From Spirochaetia bacterium (GTDB lineage Bacteria; Spirochaetota; Spirochaetia; SZUA-6; Bin103), in NCBI GenBank assembly GCA_965198005.1, contig CBDAOI010000003.1:416001-480000 (forward strand): 64,000 nt of DNA, written 5' to 3'. Below the pieces are notes generated by a model. The model had not been told where the DNA came from. It ran no database searches and saw nothing but the letters and a program-made list of their open reading frames with translations. Below are positions 14,601-35,480 of this stretch, one piece after another. Position 1 is the first letter of the stretch. Every line of letters begins with the position of its first letter. The translations under genes were made by a program, and so were the position numbers.

Positions 14601-15663
14601 CCGGGCGCGATACGGCGATCTGTTGAGGAGAGAGTTCGCTCGGATACCAGTTCCTACTAGTGATTCCGCGCTCTTCTACCAACTCGCGGCGTTCGGCAAA
14701 GAACTGGTCTCAATCCACCTTCCCAGGCTACCCGACGCAGATGGCGTCATCAGCACCTATGCCGGTCCGAAGAACCCCAAAGTCGACCGCGTCGGCTGGT
14801 CGGACGGCACCGTGTGGCTCGACGCGGGCAAAACCAACGCCCGCGAGCGCCACCGCGCGACGAAGCCCGGCACGATAGGTATAAAGGGCGTGCCCGAGCA
14901 GGTCTGGGACTTCCACATCGGCGGCTATCAGGTATGCCACAAGTGGCTCAAGGACCGGAAGGACCGCACACTCTCGGATGAGGACATCGCCCACTACCAG
15001 AAGATCGTCGTCGCCCTGAACGAAACCATCCGCATCATGGCCGAGATCGACGAGGTCATTGAAGCCCACGGCGGCTGGCCCGACGCATTCCAGACCGGCT
15101 CGGAGGCGGATGCGGCATCGGAGGGGACGGTGAATGTGGTCCCGTTCAGGCCGCCCACGGTCGAGCCCGCGCCCGAGGACCGCTACGTAACGTGCGTGCC
15201 GCTCGTCCCGCTTAGGGCGGCCGCCGGCGCCTTTAGCGATTCCCAGTACATCGAAGACGACGATTGCGAGTGGGTCGAAGTCGCCTCGCGCCATCGTCTG
15301 CGCAAGGGCATGTTCGTCGCCCAGGTCGTTGGCAAGTCCATGGAGCCCGCGATTCGCGACGGCTCCTGGTGCCTCTTCCGAGCTCCTGTCGAGGGCACGC
15401 GCCGGGGCAGAATCGTCCTCGTCCAGCTTCGCGACGCCACCGATCCCGAGACCGGTCAGCGCTACACGGTCAAGCGCTACAAGAGCGACAAGGCGGAGGA
15501 TGGCGACTCATGGCGCCACGTGAAGATCGCCCTTGAGCCGATCAACCCGGACTTCGAGCCGATCGTGCTCACCGGCGCGGACGAAGGCGAGCTCCAAGTA
15601 GTCGCAGAGCTGGTCGAGGTTCTGGAACGCAGGGCTTTTTCGGCGGAGACTAACTCCCGATGA
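11647..15663 (+). CDS. N6-adenine DNA methyltransferase with type ISP-like specificity domain and C-terminal S24 (LexA-type) peptidase domain
   Basis: [63 protein letters not shown]; tail PLRAAAG...VVGKSMEP...YTVKRY. Confidence 0.88.
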
Positions 15664-16139
15664 AGCTACTCGCTCTCTCGATACGCGGCTTCCGCGGCGT
15701 ACAGGAGGCCGACTTGCATTTCGGCCAGCACGATGTGCTGGTGGGTCCCAACGGCGCGGGCAAGAGCACGATCATCGACGCCCTGTCGCTCGTCTTCGGC
15801 CGCACCCGCCTTGTGTTACGCCATGTCCTGCCCAATATTGTGGCGACTGTCATCATCATCTTCAGCATCAACATCGGGGGGGTGATTATTTCCGAGGCCT
15901 CCCTGAGCTTCCTCGGATTCGGTCTGCCGGCCCAGATTCCCAGCTGGGGAGGGATGCTCAGCCGGGGAGGACGTGAGTACATGGAGATGGCGCCCTGGCT
16001 GGCGCTCTTTCCCGGTCTTGCCCTGACGATTACCGTCTACTCCTTCAAGATGTTTGGCAACGCCCTCAGGGACCTGCTCGACCCACGGCTGCGGGGTGGC
16101 GGTGGTGGTCTCGGTGCCGGAGCCGCCAGGTCGGCTTGA
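15660..16139 (+). pseudogene. chimeric ORF: N-terminus of an OLD/ABC-type ATP-dependent nuclease fused in frame to the C-terminus of a DppC-type ABC permease
   Basis: LSIRGFRG...LVGPNGAGKSTIIDAL to about 15815, then LRHVLPNI...SEASLSFLGFG...LRDLLDPRLRG, paralogous to 17205-18122. Confidence 0.8.
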
Positions 16140-16632
16140 GAGAGCCCGCCTGGGGGCCACGCGCCTGCGTGCGGGGCTGTGCACCCCACCCAGCAAGGCA
16201 AGGTGCGACGGGTCGGCCCCAGATGTCTTCCCGCTCGATCACCCCGGCGCCGGCCTCCTTCGGCTTCGCCACCGCTACGCCACCCGCTGCGTGCGCGGCC
16301 GACCGGCAACCCGCGGTCACACCGGATGAACGGTGACCTCCACCCGATGGCGCCCTTCCTGCCGCCACGGGTGGCATGTAGCTCCCGGCCCGCGACAGGG
16401 ACGTCGTGGGCCCGGGAGCGGTTGTTGCTGTTTTCCAGAGGCGCGCCCGGGAACGCGGCCGACCAGCTCGACGAGCGCCGGGCTGGGTATGGGCGTGACC
16501 TGGCCGGTCAGCCCGAAGCAGTGCACGTGGCGTTCGAGTTGGAGCCGAGTCGCCGCTGTGGACCGAGGGCTGGGTAACCACGACTGCACGCGAAGGGTGG
16601 GACAGGAAACTTTGATGTCGGCGGCCGCCGGC

Positions 16633-16719
16633 TGCATCCGCATCAACGATCAGTGGCGGATCTGCTTCCGGTGGAACCGGGGCGACGCGTTCGATGTGGA
16701 GATCACGGACTATCATTAA
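16633..16719 (+). pseudogene. higB: HigB/RelE-type toxin C-terminal remnant
   Basis: IRINDQWRICFRW...DVEITDYH* directly upstream of higA; N-terminus missing. Confidence 0.8.
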
Positions 16720-16729
16720 GGAGCGAGAC

Positions 16730-17071
16730 ATGGCAAGGAAGGCCCACCCCCCGATTCACCCTGGCGAGATCCTGCTACAGGAGTTTCTGGAGCCGATGGA
16801 ACTCAGCCAGTATCGGCTTGCGAAGGACATCAGCGTTCCCCCTCGGCGGATCAACGAGATCGTGCATGGCAAACGGGCGATCTCGGCTGATACAGCGCTC
16901 CGGCTTGCGCGCTATTTTGGCACGACCGAGCGCTTCTGGCTTAACCTGCAAACGCGCTACGTGCTCGAGGTGGAGAAAGGACGACTGAAGGGACGTCTCA
17001 GTAAGGAAGTGATGGTACTGCGAGAGGCGCCACCGACAGCACAGGCGCATTCCGGAAGCGGAACTTCCTGA
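16730..17071 (+). CDS. higA: HigA family antitoxin
   Basis: PIHPGEILLQEFLEPMELSQYRLAKDISVPPRRINEIVHGKRAISADTALRLARYFGT...FWLNLQ; AGGAG RBS. Confidence 0.92.
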   Translation: MARKAHPPIHPGEILLQEFLEPMELSQYRLAKDISVPPRRINEIVHGKRAISADTALRLARYFGTTERFWLNLQTRYVLEVEKGRLKGRLSKEVMVLREAPPTAQAHSGSGTS

Positions 17072-17204
17072 ACACCTGACGTGCAAGACGGACTACGCGC
17101 GACGGCCCACGTCACGACAAGGGGCCTTCGCGCTCGCAGTTTCCTTGAAACTGTCTCGATAGCCAAAAGAAGAGGTTCATTTACAGGGAGCGAAGGCGAC
17201 CCCC

Positions 17205-18122
17205 TTAATAGGCACCCATACGCCCGACGCCGCCCTTCAGCCTCGGATCAAGCAGGTCTCTCACGGCGTCGCCGAACATGTTTAGACTGAAGACTGTAAT
17301 AGTCAGCGCAAGGCCGGGCCAGAGAGCCAGCCACGGGGCCATCTCCATATACTGACGTCCTTCCCGGCTGAGCAAGCCTCCCCAGCTAGGAACCTCCACT
17401 GGCAATCCAAATCCCAGGAAGCTCAGAGAAGCCTCACTGATAATCACCCCCCCGATGTTGATGCTGAATATGATGATTACGATGGGCATAATATTGGGCA
17501 GGACATGTCGGATAAGTACTCTCCATTTTGAGTTGCCAATAGCATATGCCGCTGAAAAATATATATTCTCTTTAACGCCAATAACGGCGCTTCTGGTTAT
17601 TCTTGAGCCGCCGATGCCTCCTGATATCCCCAGGACCACTATTATCTGTGGCACTCCCCGCCCCACTATAGACATTATGGTCAACAAAAGGAGCAGCCCC
17701 GGGAAAGCCATCCAGGCATCGACAAATCTCTGCATAGTCAGGTCCAATTTACCACCAAGGAATCCGGAAGTGCCGCCTATCAGGAGAGCGACGACAACAT
17801 TGAGAGCGGTCGCGGACAGACCGACAAATATCGAAAGACGAGCACCGTAGATAATGCGGCTCAAGAAGTCTCGCCCCAACTGGTCGGTACCCACCAGATA
17901 CCGGACCGATGAGCCCTTCAGCCTGTCTACCGGGTGTATTTCCCAATATGGATAAGGAGCCAGAACATCGGCAAAGATAGCCACAAGAATCATTAGCAAT
18001 ACGATAATCCCGCAGGCAGTACCCAGTGGCTTCTCCCTCCACAACCTGATGAAGAAATCAGCAAGCGCGTTACGTCTCTTTGGCTCACTTACTGGTGATG
18101 GTATCTCTGTGGCGTTACTCAT
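17205..18122 (-). CDS. peptide/nickel ABC transporter permease (DppC/OppC-like)
   Basis: GTDQLGRDFLSRIIYGARLS, RHVLPNI, EASLSFLGFG, GDAVRDLLDPR. Confidence 0.92.
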   Translation of the reverse strand: MSNATEIPSPVSEPKRRNALADFFIRLWREKPLGTACGIIVLLMILVAIFADVLAPYPYWEIHPVDRLKGSSVRYLVGTDQLGRDFLSRIIYGARLSIFVGLSATALNVVVALLIGGTSGFLGGKLDLTMQRFVDAWMAFPGLLLLLTIMSIVGRGVPQIIVVLGISGGIGGSRITRSAVIGVKENIYFSAAYAIGNSKWRVLIRHVLPNIMPIVIIIFSINIGGVIISEASLSFLGFGLPVEVPSWGGLLSREGRQYMEMAPWLALWPGLALTITVFSLNMFGDAVRDLLDPRLKGGVGRMGAY

Positions 18123-19132
18123 ACTCGTTGTTTCCCCTTATAACGTACCCTGGGGTCTAAATAAGGATAAATCAGGTCGATAAATAGATTGGCCCCCACA
18201 ACCACGGTGGCGAAAAACAGGTTTACTCCGGAGACCACTGGGTAGTCTCTCTCATTGAGTGCATTCACCATGAGACGACCTAGCCCCGGCAGGGCAAATA
18301 AGTTCTCCATGATAACGGAGCCACCTACCAGGATAGGCAACTGCATGCCTATAAGGGTAACTATCGGGATGAAGGCATTTTTGAGGGCGTGTCTCATAAT
18401 AACTACCCTCTCCTTGAGACCCTTGGACCAGGCCGTCCTGATATAGTCCTGCCTGAGCACGTCCAGCATCGCGGTACGCGTCAGCCGCATCGTGCCTGCA
18501 GACATGGCCGTCCCCAGAATCACGCTGGGAATGATGAACATCCCGAGATTCCCCAGCGGATCTTCCGTGAAAGGAACCCACTCCATCGGTGGCGCCCAGC
18601 CCCACCAGATTGACGGGAAGAGCAGGACCATAATTCCCAGCCAGAAGTTAGGCGTTGCCATGCCGATGATGGCTATGGAGCGCCCCACGTAGTCGGCGAC
18701 CGTATCCTGACGAATCGCCGAGTAGATGCCGACTGGCAACGCTATCAACTGCCCGAGTACGAGTGCCATGAGGCCAAGCTCAATGGTTATCGGCAGGCTA
18801 GCTATTATTCTCTCCTCTACCGCAACACCCCAAAACAGTGAGTCGCCAAGGGTGCCCTGGAGGATACCTCTAAAGTGGGACTCACCGGTAATCCAGTCAG
18901 GGGTCGGCAACACTCCTATCCAGCGTCCATACTGCACGTAGGCAGGCACGTCCAATCCCAGCATACGCTCAAAAACTTCACGGTCTATCTCTTGACCTAC
19001 ATCTTGTAACCTTCCTTCTATTATGTCTATTACATCGCCCGGGATGAAGCGGACCAGGAGAAAGACGAGGATGGTCAGTATGAACAGAGTCGGGATTATC
19101 AGAAATAAGCGCCTGATGATATAGGCTCTCAT
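18119..19132 (-). CDS. peptide/nickel ABC transporter permease (DppB/OppB-like)
   Basis: MRAYIIRRL...IPGD, PNFWLG, QDYIRTAWSKGL, RHALKNA, RDYPVV, LDPRVRY. Confidence 0.92.
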   Translation of the reverse strand: MRAYIIRRLFLIIPTLFILTILVFLLVRFIPGDVIDIIEGRLQDVGQEIDREVFERMLGLDVPAYVQYGRWIGVLPTPDWITGESHFRGILQGTLGDSLFWGVAVEERIIASLPITIELGLMALVLGQLIALPVGIYSAIRQDTVADYVGRSIAIIGMATPNFWLGIMVLLFPSIWWGWAPPMEWVPFTEDPLGNLGMFIIPSVILGTAMSAGTMRLTRTAMLDVLRQDYIRTAWSKGLKERVVIMRHALKNAFIPIVTLIGMQLPILVGGSVIMENLFALPGLGRLMVNALNERDYPVVSGVNLFFATVVVGANLFIDLIYPYLDPRVRYKGKQRV

Positions 19133-19142
19133 GTTACACACC

Positions 19143-19402
19143 TCATTGCGATTTCACCCGTTATTGCGCTTTCCGCCGTCATTCCCGCGAAAGCGGGAAT
19201 CCACCTTCCACGTCTTTCCGGCCCCTTCCACTGAAGGGCTTGTCCTGAACGAAGTTGAATGGAGCGGCACTCTATAGGGTGCGAATGACCCCTGCCAAAA
19301 AACTCGCCTCTCACCGTTTTGGGAAGTCCAGGGTTCAAGGATCGCTCGAAAGAACACCTGTAGCCCATCGGAATGACAGCAAGAAAGCACGCCTCGCAAT
19401 GA
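19143..19402. repeat. cluster of REP/RPE-like palindromic elements
   Basis: GTCATTCCCGCGAAAGCGGGAATCC hairpin at 19178-19202; TCATTGCGA (19143) and TCGCAATGA (19394) flank it as inverted repeats. Confidence 0.6.
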
Positions 19403-19479
19403 CATGGTGTATGGGAGCCGGAAAGCCTCAGCCCCCCAGCTCCCTTTTTCCCTGAGCTCAGCTACAAGGGGTGCAACCC

Positions 19480-21373
19480 CTAATAACCCATTGCTGCCTT
19501 CATCTCATTATCAAACCAGAGGCGGCTGAAGACATCCTGAATTTTCCCTGCTCCAAAGCCGCCTTCGCCGTTATAACCCATCAGCCAAGGCCAATGCACG
19601 TTAAAGGCTGGGCCCAAAGGCCCCCATATAATCCAGTGCTGCTCTATACTGCGCATGTCCATCTCTTTAATCAGCCTCACCTGCTCCTCGGCGGTCTCAG
19701 CGGTCAAGGCAGCTTCATACAGGGCATCATATTCAGCGTCGCTGACTCCTCCGCTGTTCCAAGGATGGCCCGAGTAAAACCTAGGGAATTGAGTGAATGG
19801 ATCAGCCTTGACGCCCGAAACTGTTATTATCAAATCAAACTCTCCAGCTCTCACTTTGGCGTTATGTTCTGCAAGGTTAGGTGTCAGAATTTCCACACGA
19901 ACGCCAATCTCACGCCAATATGCAGCCTGCATTTCTGTCCAGCTCAAATCAAACCGCTCGAAGTGCAAGAACGTGGACTTGAATCTAAAGCCGTCGGCGC
20001 CACGAGGATATCCAGCCTCATCAAGCAGTTTCTCGGCACCTTCCGGATCATACGTGTAGTATCCCTTGAGCTCATCGGACCACTCTTCAAATAGGGTTGT
20101 ATAAGCCGTAAATTCCCTGCCTACGAACCCCCTAGGGGTCGTATCTGCCCTACCCTTAAAGTAGGTAGCGTTCATGGTCTCGAGGTCCAGTCCCATCTGC
20201 ATTGCGTGGCGCACCCTGATGTCGTCCCAGGGCGGCGCGCGGAAATTAGGCCAAGCAGAAGCATTCGACCGTTCTGACCACGGGATCACCACGAGTTCGG
20301 GGTTGGTCCGCATGAGGCTCTCTGCCTGGTCTACAGAGTTTATTTGAGAGGCGCCCTGATAACCTACGTAATCGACCTTACCCGCTCGCAGTGCCGCCAG
20401 AATTGTTGACACGTCCGGGGTAACAAGCAGCTTGTACTCGTCAAAATAGGGCAGGCGGTTCTCTGGGTATTTTTCGTCGTAGCCCCAGTAGTTGGGATTC
20501 TTGGTGTAGGTGACAGAGCTGCCCAGGATCCAGTCAGTTATCATAAAGGGACCGGTGCCCACCAGGTTCCTCCAATCGGAAATGTCGCCGTATTGCTCGA
20601 TTACCTCGGGGGGCTGTATAAACATACTGTTGCCGTCCAAGATAAGGTTCAGATACCCCAGAACACGTAATCGACCTTACCCGCTCGCAGTGCCGCCAGA
20701 ATTGTTGACACGTCCGGGGTAACAAGCAGCTTGTACTCGTCAAAATAGGGCAGGCGGTTCTCTGGGTATTTTTCGTCAGCTTCATGACAACCGTATATTT
20801 GTCGGTGGCCTCTATCGATTCCCAAGGCAGTTTTCCGAGCTCACTTGCAAGTGGGGAGGGTTCGGTGAAACCGCTGCCCAGACCCAAGAAACGGTGAAAG
20901 GAATGTTCTACATCCTTGGCAGTTAGCTCCCGACCGTTCATCGGCGCCTTATCCTGCCAGTGAACGCCTTTACGGATATTGAACACATAAGTTGTGCCGT
21001 CGGTTTGTTCCCAACTTTCCGCCAGCGCCCCCTTCAGGGCGAATAGAGGCGCCATGTAGCCGCCAACAAAAGGATATATGTCCCTATCTATGGCCCAGTC
21101 TATCGTGCCAAGTTTCTCTACAACGGGACTGGTCATCATTGCAGCTCTACCGTGTATATAGTTGTCAGAATAGCCATAATCGGCCTTCCTGGCATAGTGC
21201 ATTGTCCCACCATATTCTGGCGCAGTGTACACCTTGCCGGTGACGGGGTCGGTTACATACTTCTTGTCAGCGGCGGTCGCGTCTTCCTCTGCGCCAGCGG
21301 CCCAGAGGCCGGTCGCGGTCACAACCAGGACCAACGCTACTGCGAAGGTCATTCTAATTCTTACAATATTCAT
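19480..21373 (-). pseudogene. ABC transporter family-5 substrate-binding protein, frameshifted by an internal 113-bp duplicated segment
   Basis: Signal peptide, GALAESWEQ...FNIRKGVHW, VGTGPF, IRVRHAMQMGLD, YDPEGAEKLLDEAGYP; 20665-20777 duplicates 20366-20478. Confidence 0.85.
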
Positions 21374-21969
21374 ACGTTTCTCCGTATGTAGATTTTTCGA
21401 GAGTATTGCGTAGCGGAGTGCCGCTCCCTGGCTACTCTCATGCCCGCAACCGCGGGCGCGCCCGCCAACGCGGACGGCCAGTCTGAGTCAATTTGTGAAG
21501 CGCGCGGCGTGTGACTCATCCGGGTTCACCCCGGCTCACGCCGCGCGCCTACGGCTCTTTGAGTATCATTTTGCACCCCCTTTTTTGAGCTATTGGGTGC
21601 TCTGACAGGACCGTGGCTCGGCGATCGGGCGAGCCGCTGCCGCGGCTAGCGCGCATCTGTCGTCGACAACTCTGGTCGGGCACAGATGTGTCGGTTGTCT
21701 GTATAGAGGTGCCGGCAACGCCGGCTGGTGTGGACCGGTGGAGTTTGCGGCCGACCGGGTCGGCCGTTGGACGCACAGATGCGTGGCGGCTGTGCGCCAC
21801 ACGCATCAATGGTGCAGCGCTCAGCACCGGCGCCGCGCGAACGGCTGTCGCGCGGTTAGGTGAGCGGTGAGCGGTGAGCGGTGAGCCCACCGGCTGCGTC
21901 ACCGACCCGCGACTGCGCTGGCTGTCATCATGGCGCTTCATCGGCATCCGTCGAAACCCCAAGCGAGGC

Positions 21970-21999
21970 ACGCTAGCATAGGCGCGGCGCGCCTGTCAA
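21970..21999 (-). promoter_or_regulatory. sigma70-type promoter in repeat unit 1
   Basis: Minus strand TTGACA-N18-TAGCGT with TGn extension. Confidence 0.55.
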
Positions 22000-22093
22000 C
22001 GACTCGGAGGTGACCGAACGTCACCGCCGACCGGCGACTGCGCTGACTGTCATCATGGCGCTTCATCGGCATCCGTCGAACCCCAGGCGAGGC

Positions 22094-22123
22094 ACGCTAG
22101 CATAGGGGCCGCGCGCCTGTCAA
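22094..22123 (-). promoter_or_regulatory. sigma70-type promoter in repeat unit 2
   Basis: Minus strand TTGACA-N18-TAGCGT with TGn extension. Confidence 0.55.
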
Positions 22124-22308
22124 CGACTCGGACGTCACCGAACATCACCGGCCACCGGTCACTGCGCTGACTGTCATCATGGCGCTTGCTCGACGACCCG
22201 GGGTACAGAGCCCGATGGGAGAGGAAGCGTGCCGAGTACCTGGAGTGCGGAATCGGACGGCGTCCGCAACCAGGGTGTAGGTGAGGACCGCGCATCCTCC
22301 TGACGTCC

Positions 22309-23190
22309 CTATCCCTGGGCGCGCAGGCCGGCCAGCACGGCGTCGTCGTGCCGCCAGTTGGGGCGCACCTTGACGCGCAGGTCGAGCGTGACGCGGCGCC
22401 CGAAGATCTCGGTCAGCTCTGCCGCGGCGCCGACGCGGATGCGTGCAATGCCGCGGCCCCGGTGACCGACCACGATCCCGACCTGGCTTGGCCGTTCCAC
22501 CCAGATCGTGGCGCGCGCCCACAGCTCGCCGCCGTGCGGCTCCAGGTCCAGCACCTGGACGTACACGGCGTGCGGAACCTCGGCGCGGGTGCCGGTTATG
22601 GTCTGCTCGCGCACGATCTCGGCCACCCGGAACTCGGGACTCTGGTCGGTGTACATGTCGGCGGGGTAGAGCAGTTCGCCACGCGGACTCAGTTCCAGCA
22701 GCCGTTTGACGAGCTGCGCCACCCCCTGGCCGACGGCGGCGGAGATGCTCAGCGCCCGGCCCATGCCGGCGGCAAGCAGCGCGCTCTGCAACCCGGCGTC
22801 GGCCGCCGGCAGATCCGCCTTGTTGCGCAGCGCTACCAGCGGGCCCTGGAATCCGCCGCCGGCGTCGATTACCGCCTGATCTTCGGGCCCGAAGCGGCGC
22901 CCGGCGTCGAACACCAGCAGCAGCACGTCCACTTCCGGGACCACCCGCAGCGCGGCGTCCCGCAGCACGCGATTCAGCTTGCGCGTGCTGTCATGCAGGC
23001 CGGGCGTATCGAGAAAGATGAGCTGGTCGTCGCCGCGCGTGAGAATGCCGCGCACCCGCGTGCGGGTCGTCTGCGGCACCGGCGATACGATCGAGACCTT
23101 GTGTCCGCAGATCCGGTTGACCAGGGTGGACTTGCCGGTAGACGGGCGGCCGATCACCCCGACCGTGCCGACCCGACCGGGACCGGTCAC
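22309..23190 (-). CDS. era: GTPase Era
   Basis: GRPSTGKSTL, SIVSPVPQTTR, DTPG, NKAD, EIVRE, VPHAV, KH domain; GTG start overlaps TetR stop. Confidence 0.93.
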   Translation of the reverse strand: MTGPGRVGTVGVIGRPSTGKSTLVNRICGHKVSIVSPVPQTTRTRVRGILTRGDDQLIFLDTPGLHDSTRKLNRVLRDAALRVVPEVDVLLLVFDAGRRFGPEDQAVIDAGGGFQGPLVALRNKADLPAADAGLQSALLAAGMGRALSISAAVGQGVAQLVKRLLELSPRGELLYPADMYTDQSPEFRVAEIVREQTITGTRAEVPHAVYVQVLDLEPHGGELWARATIWVERPSQVGIVVGHRGRGIARIRVGAAAELTEIFGRRVTLDLRVKVRPNWRHDDAVLAGLRAQG

Positions 23191-23897
23191 GGAGAACCGG
23201 AGCGGCGTTCGGTCCCGCCCCGCGCCCGGCGCCGATCGAGGCGCCGCTCCAGACGTTCGGCACGGTTGCGCAGCGTCAGGCGGCGGCGCAATCCGTGCTC
23301 CACCAGAGTCAGGACGTCCTCGATCAGATCGTCGTTCCCCTCCGTCCCGAAGTTCACGAGCAACGCCGTGTACAGCGCCACCAGCATGCGCCGCACGTTG
23401 CGATAGCGGCCGATGCGGAACGTGCGCCGCCGATTGCCGGACTGGAGGATGTCGTCGATCAGGCCGCCGATCCGGTCCAGCACCCACTCCGCCCGCTGGC
23501 GCGGCACCACGCCTGGACAAGAGAAGCGGCGATCCCCCATCAGCATGCCACGCAGGATGGGACTGCGGCGCAGCCCCAGGGTGATGAACCGGTAGAGCGC
23601 CTTGAGTTGATTCATGGGTGACTCGAAGCGCGCAATCACGCGCCGCGCCTCGCCGATCGCGCGCCGTTCGATCAGGTCGAGGATGCGCGCGTAGAATTCT
23701 TCTTTGCTGCGGAAGTAGTTGTAGAAGCTGCCCGTGGCCAGGCCGGCATTGCCGGTGATCTGAGCGATGCTGACCGCCCGGTAGCCGTGCTCGGCGAACA
23801 GCCGTTCGCCGACCTCCAGCAACGCCGCCCGCCGCCGCCGACCCGGTTCGCCGACCGTCCCGGCGGTACCGTCCGGTATCAGTAGTTGCTCTGCCAT
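23187..23897 (-). CDS. TetR/AcrR family transcriptional regulator
   Basis: LFAEHGYRAVSIAQIT...GLATGSFYNYFRSKEE HTH; divergent from the cysteate synthase gene. Confidence 0.9.
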   Translation of the reverse strand: MAEQLLIPDGTAGTVGEPGRRRRAALLEVGERLFAEHGYRAVSIAQITGNAGLATGSFYNYFRSKEEFYARILDLIERRAIGEARRVIARFESPMNQLKALYRFITLGLRRSPILRGMLMGDRRFSCPGVVPRQRAEWVLDRIGGLIDDILQSGNRRRTFRIGRYRNVRRMLVALYTALLVNFGTEGNDDLIEDVLTLVEHGLRRRLTLRNRAERLERRLDRRRARGGTERRSGSP

Positions 23898-24010
23898 ACC
23901 CGCTCCCGACCGCCGCGAACCGAAGAAACGAATATTCGGTTCAGATATTCACCTTGCCTCGAAGCCCCTCAGCGCCTAACGGAACGGCTGTAGCAGGCTC
24001 TTTATGGGAC

Positions 24011-24039
24011 ACGCTAGCATTTTTCGCCGTCCGGAACAA
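24011..24039 (-). promoter_or_regulatory. candidate promoter of tetR-era
   Basis: Minus strand TTGTTC-N17-TAGCGT with TGn; same -10 box as the 125-bp repeat promoters. Confidence 0.4.
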
Positions 24040-24146
24040 CCCGAGCCTGCCCGGTGCGTGTCGCAGCAAGTACACTACTGGCGATCGCTAGGTCACCGTT
24101 CAGGATAGCGGGCGGACCTGACCCGGAGCCGCTCTCGGGAGGGAAA

Positions 24147-25484
24147 TTGAGTACCGAGCACTACCAACTGCGGTGCATGGCCTGCGGCACGCTCCACGCC
24201 GACAGCGACCACGGGTTCCTGCTGGGCTGCCCGTGCAGCCGGCCGGCCGCGGGGCTGCTGCGCACCGAATATGCCGGCACCCGGTTCGCGCCCGGCGCGG
24301 CCGGCGGCCTGTTCCGCTACGCGCAGTGGCTGCCGGTACGCGCCCACCACCCGCTGGACCTCCTGCGGGGCGGCCGTCCCCCCGCCGGCGCGGTGGCCTA
24401 TCGCAGCGGCCGTCTGGCGCGTCGGCTCGGGCTGAACGACCTGGTCGTGCTGTTCAGCGGCTACTGGCCGGAGCGCGGCGCCCATCTGGAGACCTGCGTG
24501 TTCAAGGAGCTGGAGGCGCTGGCGGTGACCGCCCGCCTGCCGGCGGCGGAACGGCGGCCGCTGGTGGTGGCGTCGGCGGGCAACACCGGGCGCGCCTTCC
24601 ACGCAGTGTGCTCGCGCTACGACATCCCGGCGGTGGTCGTGGTGCCGGAAGCGGCGCTGCCGGCCCTGTGGACCACCGGCGCGGTGTCGCCCGAGGTCGC
24701 CCTGGTCGCGGTCGGCGGCAACGCCGACTACGCCGATGCGATTCGCGTCGCCGGCATGCTCGCCGAATCGCCCGCCTATCTGGCCGAGGGCGGCGCCCTC
24801 AACGTCGCGCGCCGCGACGGCATGGGTTCGGTGCTGCTGGCCGGGGTCGAGTGTGCGGGCCGGCTGCCGCGCCATTATTTCCAGGCGGTCGGCAGCGGAA
24901 CCGGCGCGATCGCGGCCTGGGAGATGGCGCAACGGCTGGTGCGCGACGGCCGCTTCGGGGCGCGCGTGCCGCGCCTGCAGCTCGCCCAGAACGCGCCGTT
25001 CACGATCATGGCCGACGCCTGGGAGGCAGGCAGCCGCTCCCTGCTGCCGCTCGCGCCGGCCACCGCCAAGCGGCGGATCGCGGCGATGAGCGCCGGCGTG
25101 CTGAGCAACCGGACGCCGCCCTACGCCCTGGCCGGCGGTCTGTTCGACGCCCTCACCGCCAGCGCCGGCGCCATGTACCGGGTCAGCAACCGGGAGGCCG
25201 CCGGCGCCGCGGCGCTGTTCGCCGCCAGCGAGGGCTGCGAGCTCGATCCGGCCGCGGCGGTGGCGGTCGCCGCGTTGCGGCAGGCGGTGGCTGGCGGCCG
25301 GGTGGCGCCGGACGACCCGGTGTTCCTCAACGTGACCGGCGGCGGCCTGCAGCGGCTGCGCGCGGCCGGGCGGGTGCGCGCGCTGCCGCCCGACCTCGTG
25401 GTCGACCACCGGGACGCGACCCCGGCGGCCCTGGAGGCGGCGCTGGTACGGGCGCCGGCGCAGCGCGAGCGGGCAATCGCATGA
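24147..25484 (+). CDS. cysteate synthase (PLP-dependent, CapA-like)
   Basis: FSGYWPERGA...TCVFKELEA, ASAGNTGRAF, EGGALNVARRDGMG, YFQAVGSGTGAIAAWE, VLSNRTPPY, LNVTGGG; TTG start after GGAGGG. Confidence 0.88.
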   Translation: MSTEHYQLRCMACGTLHADSDHGFLLGCPCSRPAAGLLRTEYAGTRFAPGAAGGLFRYAQWLPVRAHHPLDLLRGGRPPAGAVAYRSGRLARRLGLNDLVVLFSGYWPERGAHLETCVFKELEALAVTARLPAAERRPLVVASAGNTGRAFHAVCSRYDIPAVVVVPEAALPALWTTGAVSPEVALVAVGGNADYADAIRVAGMLAESPAYLAEGGALNVARRDGMGSVLLAGVECAGRLPRHYFQAVGSGTGAIAAWEMAQRLVRDGRFGARVPRLQLAQNAPFTIMADAWEAGSRSLLPLAPATAKRRIAAMSAGVLSNRTPPYALAGGLFDALTASAGAMYRVSNREAAGAAALFAASEGCELDPAAAVAVAALRQAVAGGRVAPDDPVFLNVTGGGLQRLRAAGRVRALPPDLVVDHRDATPAALEAALVRAPAQRERAIA

Positions 25485-26803
25485 GCCGGCACGGTCACTC
25501 CGTGACACGGAAGACGATGAACACCGATACCCAGGCATCGCCTGCTGGCCGACACGTGCGCACCGGCGACCTGTTCGAGAAGTGCTCCGGCGACGGCGGC
25601 TACTTCGGCCGGTACCGCGCCGCCGGCGACAAGTTCGTGGTGCAGCCGATCCTGGATACCCTGCCGGGACCGCACATGGAGTCGAACGGCCGTCCGGTGA
25701 TCATGTGGGGCATCAACAGCTATCTCGGGCTCACCGGCAATCCCCGGATCAAGGCCGCGGCGCTGGCGTCGCTGGAGCAGTACTCCACCTCGGCGCCGAT
25801 GGGCTCCCGGCTGCTGACCGGCAACACCTCCAGGCACGAGGCGCTGGAGGCGCGGCTGGCGGAGTACTGCGAAAAGCCGGCGGCGGTGCTGTTCAACTAC
25901 GGCTACCTCGGCGTCATGGGCACCATCTCGGCCCTGATCGGCCCCAGCGACGAGGTGATCATCGACAAGCTGTCGCACGCGTCGATGATCGACGGCACCA
26001 TTCTGGCGATGGCGGGGCGCCGGTTCCGGCCCTTCCGCCACAACAGCATGGAGAGCCTGGAGCAGCAGTTGCAGGCGGCCCGGCGCAAGCGCGGCGGCGG
26101 CATTCTGATCGTGGTCGAGGGGGTCTACGGCATGCGCGGCGACCTGGCCAACCTGCCGGAAATCGCGGCCCTGGCGCGCCGCTACGAGGCCCGCATCTTC
26201 GTCGACGATGCCCACGGCTTCGCCGTGATGGGGCCGAGCGGGCGCGGCACCGCGGAGCACTTCGGCGTGCAGGATGAGATCGACCTCTACTTCGGCACCT
26301 TCGCCAAGGCGTTCGCGGCGATCGGCGGCGTGACCGCGGGCGAACGCGACGTGATCGAGTACATCCGCTTCAACGCGCGTACCAACGTGTTCGCCAAGGC
26401 GCTGCCGATGGTCTACGTCGACGCGCTGAACGCCACGCTGGATGAGATCCTGGCCCATCCCGAATATCGCGCACGGATGTGGCGCAACGCCCACAAGCTG
26501 CAACGCGGCCTGGTGGAGCTCGGATACAGCATCGGCGATACCGAATCACCGATCACGCCGGTGTACGTGCCGTCGGGCGAAGAAACCGGCCGAGCGATCA
26601 TGGTGATGCTGCGCGAGGAGTATGGGGTGTTTCTCTCGGGCGTCACCTATCCGGTGGTGCCGCGCGGCATCAACCTGTTTCGCATGATCCCGACCGCGTT
26701 GCACACCGACCAGGACATCGAGGTCACGCTGCGCGCGTTTGCCGAGATCCGTGACCGCCTGCACCTCGAGCTCGACCGCGTCCCCCAGCTCGCCACCGCC
26801 TGA
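25481..26803 (+). CDS. alpha-oxoamine synthase family enzyme, probable cysteate C-fatty acyltransferase (CapB/SulA-like)
   Basis: GPHM, NSYLGL, APMGSR, FNYGY, HASMIDG, DDAHG, GTFAK, VFAKALPM, IPTALHT; coupled to cysteate synthase (ATGA overlap). Confidence 0.8.
   Translation: MSRHGHSVTRKTMNTDTQASPAGRHVRTGDLFEKCSGDGGYFGRYRAAGDKFVVQPILDTLPGPHMESNGRPVIMWGINSYLGLTGNPRIKAAALASLEQYSTSAPMGSRLLTGNTSRHEALEARLAEYCEKPAAVLFNYGYLGVMGTISALIGPSDEVIIDKLSHASMIDGTILAMAGRRFRPFRHNSMESLEQQLQAARRKRGGGILIVVEGVYGMRGDLANLPEIAALARRYEARIFVDDAHGFAVMGPSGRGTAEHFGVQDEIDLYFGTFAKAFAAIGGVTAGERDVIEYIRFNARTNVFAKALPMVYVDALNATLDEILAHPEYRARMWRNAHKLQRGLVELGYSIGDTESPITPVYVPSGEETGRAIMVMLREEYGVFLSGVTYPVVPRGINLFRMIPTALHTDQDIEVTLRAFAEIRDRLHLELDRVPQLATA
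25488..25542 (+). repeat. 55-bp dispersed repeat, copy 1
   Basis: 46/55 identical to 28632-28686; CACGG-N5-CCGTG hairpin then AAGACNATGAA. Confidence 0.7.
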
Positions 26804-27857
26804 CGTTCGGGGCTGGCGCCGCTTCCTGCGCCGGCGCGCGGCGTCCCGCCGGCGGGGTCCGGGCCGGTGCGGGCCGGCGCTCGCCGCGGCGCTCGCCGTG
26901 GCCGGGGTGCTGCCGGGCTTGACCGGGTGCGGCGTGCGCGCCCACCAGCACCAGTTCACCGCGATGTCCACCGTCGTCCGCGTCACCGTCTACCACCGGC
27001 GCGCTCCCGACTGGGCGGCGCTGGAGCAGACGGTCCACGACTGGGCCGCGCGCTACGACCACCGCCTGGCCGCGAGTCCGGTGGCGCAGCTCAACCGCAC
27101 CGGCCAGGCGCAGCTCGACCCCGCGCTGGCGGCGACCCTGGCCGCGGCCGTGCGGCTGGCGCAGCTCAGCGGCGGCGCGTTCGATCCCACCGTCCTGCCG
27201 CTCACCCGGCTGTGGGACTTCGATCACGGCGGCACGCTGCCGCCGGCGGAGGCGCGGGCGCGGGCGCGGGCGCGGGTCGACTACCGCCGGCTGCGGGTCG
27301 TGGCCGACCGGGCAACGGTGGACGACGCGGAGCTCGATCTGGGCGCGATCGCCAAGGGGGCGGTGCTGGATCACCTGGGCGACTGGCTGGAGGCGGGCGG
27401 CCACGACCGGTTCCTGCTGGAGGCGGGCGGCGACGTGCTGGTGGCGGGGCTCAAGCCCGACGCCGTGCCCTGGCGGATCTGGATCCGCCATCCCCGGCAG
27501 ACCGATCTGCCGCTGGCCATCGCCACCATCGGCGTGGCGGACGGCCGGGTGGCGCTGGCAACCTCCGGCGACTACGAGCGGTTCTTTGAGCAGGACGGCG
27601 TGCGCTACCATCACATCCTCAACCCGGCCACGGGACTGCCCGACAGCGACGCGGTGGCGGTGACGGTGATCGCCGGCAGCGCACTTGAAGCAGACGCGCT
27701 CGCGACCGCGTTGTTCGTATTGGGCAGCGCGGGCGCGGAGCTGTTCACGACCGTGCCGGGGCTGGAGGGCGTGATCGTGTACCGGTCCGGCGCCGGCCTG
27801 GCGGCGGCGGTGAGCGACGGCTTTCCGGCGCTGCACGGCCAGCTCAACGTCGAATGA
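26751..27857 (+). CDS. apbE: FAD:protein FMN transferase lipoprotein
   Basis: Lipobox LTGC, SGGAFDPTV, LDLGAIAKG, ATSGDYERFF, YHHILNPATG, ADALATA; start uncertain. Confidence 0.9.
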   Translation: MTACTSSSTASPSSPPPDVRGWRRFLRRRAASRRRGPGRCGPALAAALAVAGVLPGLTGCGVRAHQHQFTAMSTVVRVTVYHRRAPDWAALEQTVHDWAARYDHRLAASPVAQLNRTGQAQLDPALAATLAAAVRLAQLSGGAFDPTVLPLTRLWDFDHGGTLPPAEARARARARVDYRRLRVVADRATVDDAELDLGAIAKGAVLDHLGDWLEAGGHDRFLLEAGGDVLVAGLKPDAVPWRIWIRHPRQTDLPLAIATIGVADGRVALATSGDYERFFEQDGVRYHHILNPATGLPDSDAVAVTVIAGSALEADALATALFVLGSAGAELFTTVPGLEGVIVYRSGAGLAAAVSDGFPALHGQLNVE

Positions 27858-27993
27858 ATCGGCCGCCGGCGGCCGCGATCGGCTGTCGTCGGCTGCCCCG
27901 CGCAATTGGCGGAGCGGTACGCGGTGAGTATATTCCGGCCCGAAGGCGCGCGGTGCCCACCGGCGCGGCGCAGCCGCACAATCTGGAGGCAAG

Positions 27994-28631: not shown

Positions 28632-28686
28632 GGCACGGGCACTCCGTGACCCGCAAGACAATGAAATCCGATGCACGGGCATCGCC
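28632..28686 (+). repeat. 55-bp dispersed repeat, copy 2
   Basis: Matches 25488-25542; overlaps the purC start. Confidence 0.7.
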
Positions 28687-29659
28687 GAAGCACCATGCCA
28701 CGGCGCGGCGGACGCCCGCCCCCGCGGTGTTCGAACGCCTCGACCGGGAACATCTGCGGCGGCTCGCCGGCACCCGGCCGCGGGTCCACTCCGGCAAGGT
28801 GCGCGACCGCATCGACCTCGGCGACCGCATCCTGATCGTAACCACCGATCGGGTGTCCGCCTTCGACCGCGTCCTGACCACGATTCCGTACAAGGGCCAG
28901 GTGCTGAACCAGCTCTCGGTGTTCTGGTTCAAGCTGACCTGCGACCTGATCTCCAACCACCTGATCCGGGAGGTGACGCCGCGCAGCGCCCTGGTTCGGC
29001 GCTGTACGGTGGTCCCGGTCGAGGTGGTGGTGCGCGGCTACCTGACCGGCTCCGCCTGGCGCGCCTACGAGCGTGACGGCGCCCTGGCCGGCATCCCGCT
29101 GGCGCTCGGCCTGCGGCGCGATCAGCAGTTCGAGCGGCCCCTGCTCACGCCCACCACCAAGGCGGCGCCGGGCGAGCACGACCGGCCGCTGTCCCGCGCC
29201 GAGGTGCTGGCGTCCGGCGCCGTGCCGCCGGCGCTGTGGGAGCGGATCGAGCGCGTGGCGTTGCGGCTCTACCGGCGCGGGGTCGAGCACGCCGCCCGCC
29301 GCGGGCTGATCCTGGTGGACACCAAGTACGAGTTCGGCACCATCGACGGCGAGCTGGTGCTGGCGGACGAGGTGCACACGCCCGACAGCAGCCGCTACTG
29401 GTACCGCGACACCTATGCCGAGCGGTTCGCGCGCGGGCTGGAGCAGCGCCTGCTCGACAAGGAGTTCCTGCGCGGCTGGCTGCTGGAGCGCGGCTTCCAG
29501 GGCGACGGCGCGCCCCCGCCGATCCCGGAGACGGTGCGCGCCGAGCTGGCGCAGCGCTACCGGGAGGTGTATCGGATCCTGACCGGCGCCGAGCTGGCCG
29601 GCGCGCCGCTCAGCGTCGAGGAGGAGCTCGCGCGGTACGCGGAGGTGGTGCGCGGATGA
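28661..29659 (+). CDS. purC: phosphoribosylaminoimidazole-succinocarboxamide synthase
   Basis: SGKVRD, TDRVSAFD, EVVVRGYLTGS, TPTTKA, LVDTKYEFG, DEVHTPDSSRYW, DKEFLR. Confidence 0.95.
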   Translation: MKSDARASPKHHATARRTPAPAVFERLDREHLRRLAGTRPRVHSGKVRDRIDLGDRILIVTTDRVSAFDRVLTTIPYKGQVLNQLSVFWFKLTCDLISNHLIREVTPRSALVRRCTVVPVEVVVRGYLTGSAWRAYERDGALAGIPLALGLRRDQQFERPLLTPTTKAAPGEHDRPLSRAEVLASGAVPPALWERIERVALRLYRRGVEHAARRGLILVDTKYEFGTIDGELVLADEVHTPDSSRYWYRDTYAERFARGLEQRLLDKEFLRGWLLERGFQGDGAPPPIPETVRAELAQRYREVYRILTGAELAGAPLSVEEELARYAEVVRG

Positions 29660-32013: not shown

Positions 32014-33420
32014 ATGGTCAGGGGCCGGCTGCCGATCGGGATACAGACCTTCCGCAAGCTCCGGGAGCGGAACTGCTACTACGTCGACAAGACGGCTTAC
32101 ATAGACCGGCTGCTCCACGAGGGCACGCACTACTTTCTGTCGCGGCCGCGGCGGTTCGGCAAGAGCCTGTTCCTGGACACGCTGAAGGAGCTGTTCGAGG
32201 GCAACGAGGAACTGTTCGCGGGGCTCTACATCCACCAGCGCCACAACTGGACGGAGCGCCATCCGGTGGTGCGGCTGAGCTTCGGCGGCGGCAACTTCAA
32301 GGAGCCGGGGGAACTGCACGAGGACGTGATGCTCCAACTGGAGGATCTGGAGGAAGAGGCTGAGATCGCGGTCCGCCGAGTGAGCGCCCCGGCGCGCCTG
32401 CGCCGCTTGCTGCAGGCGCTGCATCGCAAGACCCGGCGGCGGGTGGCGGTGCTGGTGGACGAGTACGACAAGCCGATCCTGGACGCGCTGGTGGAGAAGC
32501 CGGAGGTGGCGCGCGCCAACCGCGACTACCTGCGCGGATTGTACGGGGTGATCAAGGACAGCGACGCGCACGTGGAGTTCACGTTCGTGACCGGCATCAG
32601 CAAGTTCTCGAAGGTGAACCTGTTCTCGCAATTGAACAACCTCACCGACCTGACGCTGGATCCGGTCTATTCGGCGATCTGCGGATACACGGAGCGGGAT
32701 CTGGACACGGTGTTCGCGCCGGAGCTGGGCGGGCTGGACCGGGAGCAGGTGCGGGAGTGGTACAACGGCTACCTGCTGCTAGCTGGCGCGAGGGACTGGT
32801 TCGGAGAAGGTGTACAACCCGTACGACCTGCTGCTGCGGAGGCGCTGCTGTTCCAGACCGGCTACCTGACCATCACGGGGGAAGAGGAGCTGGGCGGCAT
32901 GGCGCTGTACCGGCTGGGCTATCCGAACCGGGAAGTGCGGCAGAGCCTGAACCGGGTCCTGCTGAGCCATCTGGTGCAGGACACGGCGCGGCAGACGGTG
33001 AACAGCATGCGCCTGGCGCGGCTGCTGGACGCGGTCGATTGCGAAGGCCTGCGAGGTCTGTTCCATGCCTTCTTCGCGAGCATCCCGTACGAATGGCACA
33101 CCAACAACGACATCGCCGACTACGAAGGCTTTTGCGCGAGCGTGTTCTACTCGTACTTCGCGGCGCTGGGGTACGAGATCGTGGTGGAGGAGTCGAGCAG
33201 CCACGGGCGGCTCGACATGGCGGTGCGCGCCGGCGGGCAGGTGTACCTGTTCGAGTTCAAGGTGGCGGAGCTGGCGCCGCCGGGGTCTGCGCTGGCGCAG
33301 TTGCGGGAGCGGGACTACGCGGCCAAGTACCGGGGCGGAGGCGAGCCGATCCACCTCATCGGCGTGGAGTTCAGCCGCGACACGCGCAACGTGACCGCGT
33401 TCGAGGTGGCTGCCGGCTGA
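32014..33420 (+). pseudogene. AAA-ATPase-like + PD-(D/E)XK (PDDEXK_9) protein, copy 1, with internal scramble/deletion
   Basis: LPIGIQTF, YYVDKT, SRPRRFGKSL, LVDEYDKP, GRLD...YLFEFK; segment around 32770-32840 scrambled and about 50 aa missing relative to 54218 copy, frame kept. Confidence 0.85.
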
Positions 33421-33878: not shown

Positions 33879-35340
33879 ATGCCGCATCCGCCGCTGACCG
33901 GGCGGCGGGCCCCGCGCGGCGGGCGGCCCGGCCTCCGCCGCTTCGCCCGGGCGTTCGCCGCCGCGGCATTGCTCGCGCTCTTCGGCGCCCTCGCTCCGCC
34001 GGCGCAGGCCCAGACCTGCACCGACAACGACATCGACCTCGTGCGGGGAAAGAACGAGTCGGAAGGCAGCGTCCAGATCTGCCACGACAACTAGTGGCGC
34101 TCGGTCTGCGACGACGAACTAAAGGTTGCTTCCGAGCTTCCGACAACATTACTGCCAACGGCTGGGCGTTCGCCGGGGTCGTGTGCCGCCAGCTCGGCCA
34201 TGCCACCGGGACCCCGACAACCTCGTCGCAGTTCGGCGCGATCTTTCCCGTGAGTTTCTGGCTTGACGACGTGGTGTGCGACGGCACGGAGGCCAATCTC
34301 GGCGCCTGCGCGCACGCCGGCTGGGGAACGAACAACTGTTCCTTCAGCGAGCGGGCGGGCGTGCAGTGCACGGTGGCCGCGTCGGGGCTGACGGCGACGG
34401 GCGGAGACAACGCCTCGAGCTACACCGCGACCAAGCATGTCAACCTGATCGATTACGTGTTCCAGGTGCGCGCGGTGAATGCCGGGGGCGGGAGCGGGCC
34501 GTCGAACGAGGCGGCGGCGACGCCGCTGCACCCGGACGCGCCGCCGGCGCCGACGGTGAGCGCGCCCGCGGGCACGGCGGGGCTGCTGGAGGTGAGCTGG
34601 ACGGAGCCGACCGCTGGAGCTTACGTGGTGCGGTACTGGCCGGCCGATGAAGACGGCAGCACGCGGCGGACCAGGTCGGCGTCGGACCAGAACGCGCTGG
34701 TGGCTCTGGTCGCCGGCGTCAGTGACTGCGCCGATGTCACCACCGCCCATCTCGCCGCCATCACCGGCGAGTTGGACCTGGGAAATCAGGACCCCAAGAT
34801 CACCGCCCTCGCGGCCGGGGATTTCGACGGGCTGAACTCGCTGACGACACTGGGTCTGTCGGGAAACGCTTTAACCACGCTGCCCGCCGGGGTGTTCGAC
34901 GACCTGACCGCACTGAACAGGCTGGATCCTAGCCACAACACTCTGACCGAGCTTCCCGCCGGGGTGTTCAAGAAACTGACCGCGCTGAGGTTTCTACTGT
35001 TGCGGTACAACGATCTGACCGAGCTTCCCGACGGGGTGTTCGACGGGCTGACCGCGCTGAGCCAGCTCTGGCTGGACCGGACCGCGCTGACCGAGCTTCC
35101 CGAAGGGATGTTCGTCGAGCTGACCTCGCTGAACTTGGGTGATCGGTCGGCAAACGGTCATCAGGATCGAAGCGGACTCCCGCTCGGTGGTGGACGAAGG
35201 CGCACCGTTGCGCTTCACGCTGTCGCGCGACCAACCCCACGGCAGCCTCCGATCGCGAAACCGGCGGAACACGAAGTCGCCGCAAGCGCCGCGGTGAACG
35301 TGACGGCGGTGAACGACCCGGCCACGGGCGCGCCGATGGC
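33879..35340 (+). pseudogene. degraded secreted protein: signal peptide, SRCR domain, FN3-like pieces, LRRs
   Basis: AQA|QTC signal; EGSVQICHDN*WRSVCDD...VVCRQLG...WLDDVVCDGTEANLGAC...GWGTNNC...AGVQC; TAG at 34092 and 8-bp duplication at 34128-34143; LRR cap shared with 35630-35800. Confidence 0.8.
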
Positions 35341-35480
35341 CGGCCGTGTGCGGCACCTCCTCCCCCTGTGGGCAGTACGAGTTGACGACAAGTGGTCTTG
35401 CTATTGGTCTCGGGATGACTACTAGAGAGCCGAGTGTCGGGATGTGCAGTGGCCGTCGAGGACGCGGCGCGGGTCTTCCC

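Follow-up and report, generated by a model that had tools for sequence, protein, structure and literature searches.

A coupled gene pair that probably makes the head group of capnine-type sulfonolipids in a spirochaete

Sulfonolipids are sulfur analogues of sphingolipids. Their action on animal cells runs through TLR4 signalling and antagonism of the von Willebrand factor receptor, and RIF-1, a lipid of the capnine class, triggers rosette formation, i.e., multicellularity, in choanoflagellates. In this study, a gene pair for a cysteate synthase and an alpha-oxoamine synthase (AOS) was analyzed in a 64,000-nt stretch of DNA of a Spirochaetia bacterium (assembly GCA_965198005.1, contig CBDAOI010000003.1, positions 416,001 to 480,000), hereafter the window. 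The closest described relatives of the second enzyme are CapB, SulA, and cysteate-C-fatty acyltransferase (CFAT) of Bacteroidota, with solved structures from Capnocytophaga ochracea (CFAT/CapB, PDB 28eh) and Alistipes finegoldii (SulA, PDB 7u7h). The closest relative of the first is the archaeal-type cysteate synthase (CapA/Cys, TIGR03844, PDB 9k3c). In papers and surveys, sulfonolipids are described as Bacteroidota lipids (abstract of PMC9304779), and 9632 of 9633 prioritised genomes in a gut survey belonged to Bacteroidota (PMC11525784).

Quite probably, two genes of the window form an operon that makes the head group of a capnine-type sulfonolipid, as predicted from gene similarity and gene order. 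The chemistry is known. New details are the lineage, the coupled operon together with its regulator, and the connection to sulfate activation. The original prediction had placed a TetR-family regulator, a CapA-type cysteate synthase, and a CapB-like AOS within 23187-26803, and all three were found there. A CapA-type enzyme next to a CapB/SulA/CFAT-type enzyme outside Bacteroidota holds at the level of sequence, but the role proposed for one lysine does not, and three close relatives speak against a strict coupling of the two genes. The features of the locus are as follows.

22309-23520: era open reading frame (ORF), its start region overlapped by the 3' end of tetR
23187-23897, minus strand: TetR-family regulator, 236 amino acids (aa), PF00440 at 50.9 bits
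23917..23951, no strand: inverted repeat resembling an operator, in a conserved block; distance to the tetR start codon 20 nt (upstream)
24013..24078, plus strand: promoter-like or leader conserved blocks before the first biosynthetic gene (TAnCAnnTTT, CGGAAnA, GTACACT)
24147..25484, plus strand: putative cysteate synthase of CapA/Cys type, ORF open from GTG at 24054
25481..25484, plus strand: ATGA stop/start overlap from cysteate synthase to acyltransferase (cysteate synthase TGA at 25482-25484)
25481..26803, plus strand: CFAT/SulA/CapB-like AOS, PF00155 at 159.1 bits
25487..25564, plus strand: copy of a dispersed repeat, 78 nt, in frame, behind codon 2 of the acyltransferase
25565, plus strand: start of the conserved core of the acyltransferase, Asp-Leu-Phe

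The product of the second gene, i.e., the CFAT-like acyltransferase, was compared with all solved structures. The two best matches were the C. ochracea CFAT (28eh, 381.5 bits) and the A. finegoldii SulA (7u7h, 356.5 bits). Other solved AOS scored lower, i.e., serine palmitoyltransferase (SPT) at 267 bits, Kbl at approximately 195 bits, and BioF at 162 bits or less, and the solved CFATs outscored the best SPT by about 90-115 bits. The window enzyme has the same fold and aligns to the long-chain CFATs over residues 18-418 of 428, i.e., nearly full length, although its identity to the Bacteroidota homologues is about 42-48%. The same reaction is predicted, i.e., cysteate and acyl-acyl carrier protein (acyl-ACP) or acyl-CoA to 3-ketocapnine and CO2. 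The gene is under purifying selection, with a ratio of nonsynonymous to synonymous substitution rates (dN/dS) of 0.07-0.24 across 28 pairs.

No NCBIfam equivalog cut-off was reached by the acyltransferase. The best model was the Bacteroidota SPT model NF047600 (315.6 bits, cut-off 640), and the scores were also below the cut-offs of two other SPT models (NF047599, 291.1 versus 500; NF047603, 225 versus 670), of bioF (291.8 versus 426.45), and of Kbl (292.5 versus 460). An SPT model at the top of the list would suit an AOS of sphingolipid or other type with serine, glycine, or alanine as its substrate, with the cysteate synthase serving an unrelated sulfonate need. However, the score is half of the cut-off, whereas two control Bacteroidales SPTs (L134 and L135) passed it at 700.5 and 683.8 bits, and even the SPT-like enzymes of other spirochaetes reached 573-591 bits. 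The scans left out L110 and one ORF of L113. The spirochaete SPT-like enzymes (L105-L109) group with the Bacteroidales SPTs, and by this similarity some other spirochaetes may make sphingolipid-type bases.

A tree of 73 proteins was made by a quick IQ-TREE search without bootstrap or approximately unbiased (AU) test, and the program warned of long branches. The rows were the window enzyme, 7 close spirochaete loci, 22 other spirochaete loci, 31 Bacteroidota loci (12 named and a random draw from 73 loci), one Aureibacter gene, one Legionella plasmid gene, 5 spirochaete SPT-like enzymes, the second AOS of the genome, two Bacteroidales SPTs passing the SPT cut-off, and E. coli BioF and Kbl. A CFAT-like clade of 63 rows, including the window, was set apart from all other rows; the separating branch measures 2.08 changes per column and has a support of 99 in the Shimodaira-Hasegawa-like approximate likelihood ratio test (SH-aLRT). 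In this comparison with CFAT, SPT, BioF, and Kbl, which had been proposed as a check, the enzyme groups with the CFATs. The Bacteroidota rows were monophyletic (SH-aLRT 100, branch 1.19), and the spirochaete groups branched outside them. Two Bacteroidota rows of the clade scored 580-608 bits on both solved CFATs in the PDB, so the Bacteroidota part of the clade holds the characterised enzymes. The only other AOS of the genome (C4:1640954-1642027) lies with BioD-like and AMP-ligase genes and is therefore of biotin type.

The residues that distinguish CFATs from SPTs were reported as positions 113-115, 187, 245, and 249 in PMC13692747, which describes the C. ochracea CFAT structure with bound cysteate (COCFAT numbering). 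The window enzyme has Tyr-Gly-Tyr at 113-115, Glu187, Phe245, and Ala249, as CFATs; at the same positions, Thr-Gly-Phe/Tyr, Asp, Met/Val, and Ser are found in SPT. Ala249, Glu187, and Tyr115 were found in all 63 CFAT-like rows, Phe245 in 61, and Tyr or Phe at 113 in 62. The catalytic residues Lys250, His139, Asp216, His219, Thr247, and Asn52 are kept, and the residues for catalysis and pyridoxal phosphate (PLP) are K264, H154, D230, H233, and T261 in the 428-aa numbering. These catalytic residues, the AOS fold, and the PLP chemistry are shared with bacterial SPTs (NF047600; PDB 3a2b/8guh and 2jg2), but the window enzyme lies in a separate clade, and the SPTs have Ala in place of a marker Lys, Thr-Gly-Phe in place of Tyr-Gly-Tyr, and Asp, Met, and Ser in place of Glu, Phe, and Ala.

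The marker Lys, K294 in the 428-aa numbering, lies in the motif FAKALPM. This motif, APMG, and NYGY had been noticed in the original prediction, and they coincide with CFAT marker sites; FAKALPM, PMGSR, NYGY, and TFAK were confirmed in the translation. The position of K294, i.e., 281 in SulA and 280 in COCFAT, was Lys in every one of the 63 CFAT-like rows, whereas the 10 remaining rows had Ala, Thr, or Asn. In PMC9304779, Lys281 of SulA, which replaces an SPT Ala, was suggested to discriminate sulfonolipid from sphingolipid condensing enzymes. The K281A variant still binds cysteate, and the Lys side chain walls off the active site (PMC9304779). In the original prediction, this Lys bound the sulfonate; according to that source its role is structural.

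The first gene (ORF 24054-25484) scored 464.8 bits on the cysteate synthase equivalog TIGR03844, above its cut-off of 324.9, and 64.7 bits on the best threonine synthase model, with a cut-off of 303. Among solved structures, 9k3c ('Cysteate synthase') was the best relative, with 339 bits and an alignment of residues 36-449, and the best solved threonine synthase scored 51.8 bits. The CapA assignment is borne out by the TIGR03844 score and the 9k3c match, and the FKE lysine motif of the archaeal-type enzyme is also aligned. The family TIGR03844 was presumably defined on the coenzyme M route of methanogens. Unlike the archaeal-type enzyme, the window gene is placed in a spirochaete and in an operon with an acyltransferase. 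Some spirochaete families place the gene with cysD-cysNC and cysH, and it is gone from three otherwise syntenic close relatives. Homologues are found in Chloroflexota and other phyla as well. In spirochaete metagenome-assembled genomes (MAGs), NCBI names the first gene 'cysteate synthase', and the second has only a generic name. The start codon is probably TTG at 24147, rather than GTG at 24054. A GGGAGGG ribosome-binding site lies 3 nt ahead of this TTG, and relatives of 441-443 aa cover 99-100% of the resulting 445-aa form; TTG is favoured because the lengths and coverage of the relatives fit it better.

The best 120 database relatives of the acyltransferase were 63-100% identical, and the named ones among them were Spirochaetaceae bacterium, Spirochaetes bacterium, and Salinispira pacifica. 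On contigs from one genome per species, the seven best loci (84-86% identity) belong to MAGs of Spirochaetia or Spirochaetales. A further 73 loci were kept (42-48% identity), all of them Bacteroidota with one exception labelled Chlorobiota. The gene order apbE-clpP-purC downstream is common to the seven close loci, era and tetR are upstream in most, and ClpP is 80-93% identical. Because the named relatives and the seven syntenic loci are spirochaete, the host is by these relationships a spirochaete and not a member of Bacteroidota. A high-GC host outside Bacteroidota had been predicted, and the relatives, the synteny, and a G+C content of 65-75% agree with it. The proposed check of taxonomy through era, purC, and clpP also led to Spirochaetia and Spirochaetales MAGs, i.e., the close loci that share the gene order. 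FlaA (PF04620) had no match in the genome, but it had none in any of 14 control genomes either and was uninformative.

The two genes overlap by the ATGA sequence, in which the start codon of the acyltransferase precedes the stop codon of the cysteate synthase. All four close relatives with both genes (L001, L002, L004, and L005) have ATGA behind a GGAGG-type site, and the coupling is therefore ancestral. The relatives read ATG-(ACC/AGC/AAC)-GAC-CTG-TTC directly, i.e., Met-(Thr/Ser/Asn)-Asp-Leu-Phe. Translational coupling had been claimed for the window, and the overlap is present, but the window copy has the 78-base insertion (25487-25564), stop-free and in frame, between codon 2 and Asp-Leu-Phe. 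The insertion would add 26 residues if translation begins at 25481; alternative starts are ATG at 25517 and GTG at 25556, and the protein-database form (P0001) starts at ATG 25517. Unlike the Bacteroidota CFATs, the window enzyme has this repeat-derived insert behind residue 2.

The inserted element is a dispersed repeat of approximately 80-100 nt with the core GGCACGGTCACTCCGTGACACGGAAGACGATGAA and hairpin-forming parts. Its 34-nt core has 21 genome copies at up to 5 mismatches, including one at 28632 of the window before purC. The window copies are located at 25483-25564 and 28632-28700, and 19 more are found elsewhere in the genome (G000), often directly behind a stop codon and ahead of the next gene. 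Both window copies read in frame as N-termini, i.e., of the acyltransferase and of PurC. In an Rfam scan of the insertion, no family was found at E <= 1, and its fold was no more stable than that of shuffled sequence (z-score -0.75).

The pairing of the two genes was surveyed in 401 Spirochaetota genomes. Some AOS was found at E <= 1e-60 in 117 genomes, and a strong CFAT-like match (at least 47% identity) in 24, with the next best match at 41%. Cysteate synthase was found in 25 genomes, which included all 24 with the strong CFAT-like match; the one without a CFAT-like gene was G070 (89% complete, 590 contigs). In one family (f19), both genes were present in 17 of 17 genomes, unlinked. The pair is adjacent in the window, in four of the seven close loci, and in G193, G196, G241, and G276, in the order cysteate synthase and then CFAT. 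In Bacteroidota, in contrast, none of the 73 CFAT loci has a cysteate synthase within about 10 kb.

As in methanogens, a cysteate synthase may feed coenzyme M, taurine, or osmolyte-type sulfonates, and its place beside an AOS would then be incidental. The occurrence of homologues in Chloroflexota and other phyla would allow for this. However, ComA was not found in the genome of the window, the stop/start overlap with the AOS is conserved, and 24 of the 25 spirochaete genomes with cysteate synthase also carry the CFAT-like gene. We regard this explanation as very improbable.

The assignment of the pair to sulfonolipid synthesis has to be weighed against several observations. The window enzyme lies outside the Bacteroidota clade, which holds every characterised CFAT, and because of this branching the specificity of the spirochaete enzymes is extrapolated. 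Ser was found at positions 82 and 141 in the window as in SPT, whereas the solved CFATs have Ala82 and Cys141. The co-occurrence is inflated by kinship, since f19 alone supplies 17 of the 24 genomes and the counts are not independent events. Three of the close loci (L003, L006, and L007) keep the acyltransferase (84-85% identity) with tetR directly upstream and no cysteate synthase between, and no cysteate synthase was found genome-wide in these genomes (E <= 1e-20). In these cells, cysteate would come from elsewhere, or the acyltransferase would accept another substrate. The 78-nt insertion could affect the expression or the N-terminus of the acyltransferase. For the later steps, neither a reductase nor an N-acyltransferase could be assigned in the genome, where a reductase of ApbA/PanE type, tried as the ketocapnine reductase, had no homologue (tblastn, E <= 1e-5). 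In the literature, no lipid or enzyme measurement for any spirochaete turned up.

The search that missed the cysteate synthase in the three genomes (G401-G403) recovered it in the control relatives L002 and L004, and the records of L003 and L006 are labelled complete chromosomes. The ComA route was considered as a cysteate source in these genomes, and ComA was not found. The dN/dS among the three acyltransferases is 0.14-0.19, i.e., purifying like the rest.

These three relatives, together with Ser at 82 and 141, are what an AOS for serine, glycine, or alanine would explain. Ser82 is also found in 4 of 32 Bacteroidota CFAT-like rows, and Ser141 in none of the 32. Ala82 and Cys141 are not among the proposed defining residues of CFATs. 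According to PMC13692747, the C141A swap leaves 19-48% activity. No swap of a COCFAT pocket residue gave serine activity (PMC13692747), which argues against such an enzyme. The conserved ATGA coupling to cysteate synthase and the presence of cysteate synthase in 24 of 24 enzyme-bearing genomes argue against it as well. An enzyme of this kind is judged improbable.

The acyl chain length is not readable from the sequence, and the enzyme could instead make a short-chain or non-membrane sulfonated aminoketone, i.e., a metabolite, signal, or natural-product precursor, comparable to the products of the autoinducer AOS CqsA and LqsA. Small-molecule pathways are often under TetR regulators, the pair has no linked downstream reductase or N-acyltransferase, and the enzyme belongs outside the characterised clade, all of which would be consistent with such a product. 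On the other side, the similarity to long-chain CFATs is full-length, the autoinducer synthase model of NCBIfam was far below its cut-off (188.5 versus 428 bits), and the pair is stable in whole families such as f19, as expected of a membrane component. A short-chain product is unlikely, if slightly less so than a serine-type enzyme, and a membrane sulfonolipid of the capnine type is the preferred product of the pair.

The later steps of capnine synthesis are a reduction and an N-acylation. The absence of the reductase gene capC from the window had been noted before, and indeed none of the 56 adh_short (PF00106) matches of the genome is inside the window. The 56 matches gave no basis to single out a CapC. 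Two short-chain dehydrogenase/reductases (SDRs) near the second AOS were considered, and they belong to the biotin-type cluster. According to PMC11211663, the ketocapnine reductases of Bacteroidota are several redundant SDRs, not adjacent to cfat or Cys, and so no CapC would be expected nearby. In ten f19 loci (L111-L120), an NAD(P)H reductase of the ApbA/PanE family is divergent from the acyltransferase (e.g., L118, 7935-8975, minus strand), and a Glt_symporter-like transporter follows. This reductase is a candidate non-SDR ketocapnine reductase in f19 only, as suggested by its position.

Genes of sulfate activation and reduction were found at the beginning of the window, as follows.

305-1048, plus strand: cysH, Pfam PAPS_reduct
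739-1926, plus strand: ORF of cysD
2011-3816, plus strand: cysN/cysC fusion, Pfam GTP_EFTU and APS_kinase
3846-5270, plus strand: cobA/hemD, Pfam TP_methylase and HEM4

In G196 and G276, which belong to two other spirochaete families, the order is cysD-cysNC-cysteate synthase-CFAT-cysH on one strand. As predicted from its genes, this operon is a complete route from sulfate through sulfite and cysteate to the lipid base. In relatives, the sulfate block adjoins era-tetR-CFAT directly. The order in L003 is MnmA-Rrf2-cysH-cysD-cysNC-cobA/hemD-era-tetR-CFAT, and in the window the sulfate genes (305-5270) are separated from era by an island of approximately 17 kb. A sulfate pathway for the sulfonate only was considered, and it is ruled out here by a NIR_SIR sulfite-reductase-like gene at C3:252182-253474. 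The island (5271-22308) has a lower G+C (0.53-0.65) and lies between cobA/hemD and era, whose distance in L003 is 5 nt. Its genes encode a DUF222 protein, a PLD-helicase, AAA fragments, a Type ISP restriction-modification enzyme with a fused S24 peptidase domain, and an ABC system of oligopeptide type with its binding protein split in two (19480-20640 and 20534-21373).

In the proposed pathway, CysD, CysN/C, and CysH would activate and reduce sulfate to sulfite. From sulfite and O-phosphoserine, the cysteate synthase would form L-cysteate; the family is plain from the scores, and the substrate is taken from its known chemistry. The PLP enzyme would then bind cysteate as an external aldimine. 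Decarboxylative condensation with a long-chain acyl-ACP or acyl-CoA would give a 2-amino-3-keto-alkane-1-sulfonate of the 3-ketocapnine type, for which the family and marker residues were found and the substrates and chain length are presumed. A reductase and an N-acyltransferase, encoded at other sites of the genome, would complete the route to capnine and the N-acyl sulfonolipid. The divergent TetR would probably repress the pair through the conserved palindromic block, and its ligand may be an acyl compound or a lipid. Actual production of sulfonolipids by the cell is inferred from this pathway.

A different arrangement was seen on the Legionella lytica plasmid pLlyPCM2298_1 (L133, 8986-13857). 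A CFAT-like gene with 49% identity and the marker Lys is followed there by a 970-aa phosphosulfolactate synthase and then by a 2-phosphosulfolactate phosphatase. Judging from this gene order, a gammaproteobacterium may form a sulfonated lipid base with sulfonate supplied by a different route.

The TetR-family regulator did not reach the cut-off of any NCBIfam equivalog. Matches to tetR (tblastn, 74-78% identity) were found just upstream of the pair in six of the seven close loci, and the remaining locus (L001) is cut before tetR. Inverted repeats had been noticed at 23917-23950, and perfect 8-nt arms were indeed located at 23917-23924 and 23935-23942, with an inner 90% palindrome at 23925-23942. 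They lie inside a block, GAAnnAnnGAATn6TTCAnnTATTCA, that is invariant in the window and six related loci, and the support for the inverted repeat is this conservation in relatives, not statistics. With up to 3 mismatches allowed, the 18-mer of the palindrome occurs once in the genome. The leader blocks at 24013..24078 are invariant in the seven-locus alignment, with or without a cysteate synthase following. In L003, L006, and L007, the conserved leader runs directly into the acyltransferase. An Rfam scan of the intergenic region (23700-24300) found no family at E <= 1. These blocks fit a putative TetR operator and promoter, and the divergent position of tetR and the conserved palindromic block point to control by TetR. 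No TetR was seen beside the pair in G193, G196, or G276, and the TetR arrangement is, judging from gene order, specific to the lineage of the window.

Four RNA libraries of one study, labelled sponge metagenome, held contig pieces of approximately 150-340 bases that match the region 22300-27900 with 0-1 mismatches. The pieces fall on era, tetR, cysteate synthase, the acyltransferase, and apbE. By these matches, the organism or a near-identical strain is present in the libraries. Because DNA carry-over is possible, the pieces are weak evidence for expression and no proof of transcription. The libraries are kept as contigs, so that transcript ends, strand, and level are not readable and uncovered parts carry no meaning. 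A second strain is suggested by a piece with 16 differences on 25865-26319. Many contigs from elsewhere match 25490-25521 only, i.e., a part of the repeat insertion.

No report of a sulfonolipid pathway or lipid in spirochaetes was found in full-text searches. The string 'spirochaet' was absent from the text of the CFAT papers. Sequences from outside Bacteroidota may be included in the wider CFAT tree of PMC13692747 (supplement Figure S1). PMC11129491 mentions capnine for Bacteroidota isolates only. An unidentified aminolipid is listed among the major lipids of Salinispira pacifica in its description (PMC4511686), and the acyltransferase homologue of this species (P0089, 64% identical) carries the CFAT motifs, with FAKSLPM at the marker Lys. 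That this aminolipid is a sulfonolipid is a lead, not evidence.

If spirochaetes make sulfonolipids, their outer membranes would gain a new lipid class, and the range of producers in sediments, mats, and animal hosts would exceed what has been assumed. Such biomarkers would then no longer be readable as Bacteroidota markers. The spirochaete branch would also be a second, divergent enzyme set for studying the selection of cysteate, a question raised in the structural papers. Cultured relatives, e.g., Salinispira pacifica, carry the acyltransferase and would allow a direct test. A broader view, which we hold as tentative and rather doubtful, is that sulfonolipid synthesis was not invented by Bacteroidota. 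An old CFAT branch of their own would exist in several spirochaete lineages, linked with cysteate synthase and in some cases with a dedicated sulfate-to-sulfite operon. In the same doubtful view, the spirochaete of the sponge-labelled libraries would make lipids of the RIF-1 class, possibly as host-directed signals in an animal symbiosis, and the aminolipid of Salinispira pacifica would be of the same kind.

In another part of the window, an ORF at 34094-35425 has a scavenger-receptor cysteine-rich (SRCR) domain with leucine-rich repeats, i.e., a eukaryote-like domain mix. A 2981-aa ORF of near-identical repeats, with a third-position G+C of 0.96, was found at 39097-48042, and several surface-protein genes with Calx-beta, fn3, and Big_9 domains follow it at 50516-58650. 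AAA-ATPase_like plus PDDEXK_9 genes are scattered among the surface-protein genes in four copies or fragments (32014-33420, 48456-48917, 54110-55768, and 60306-61664). A YhgA-like transposase was found at 55663-57030.

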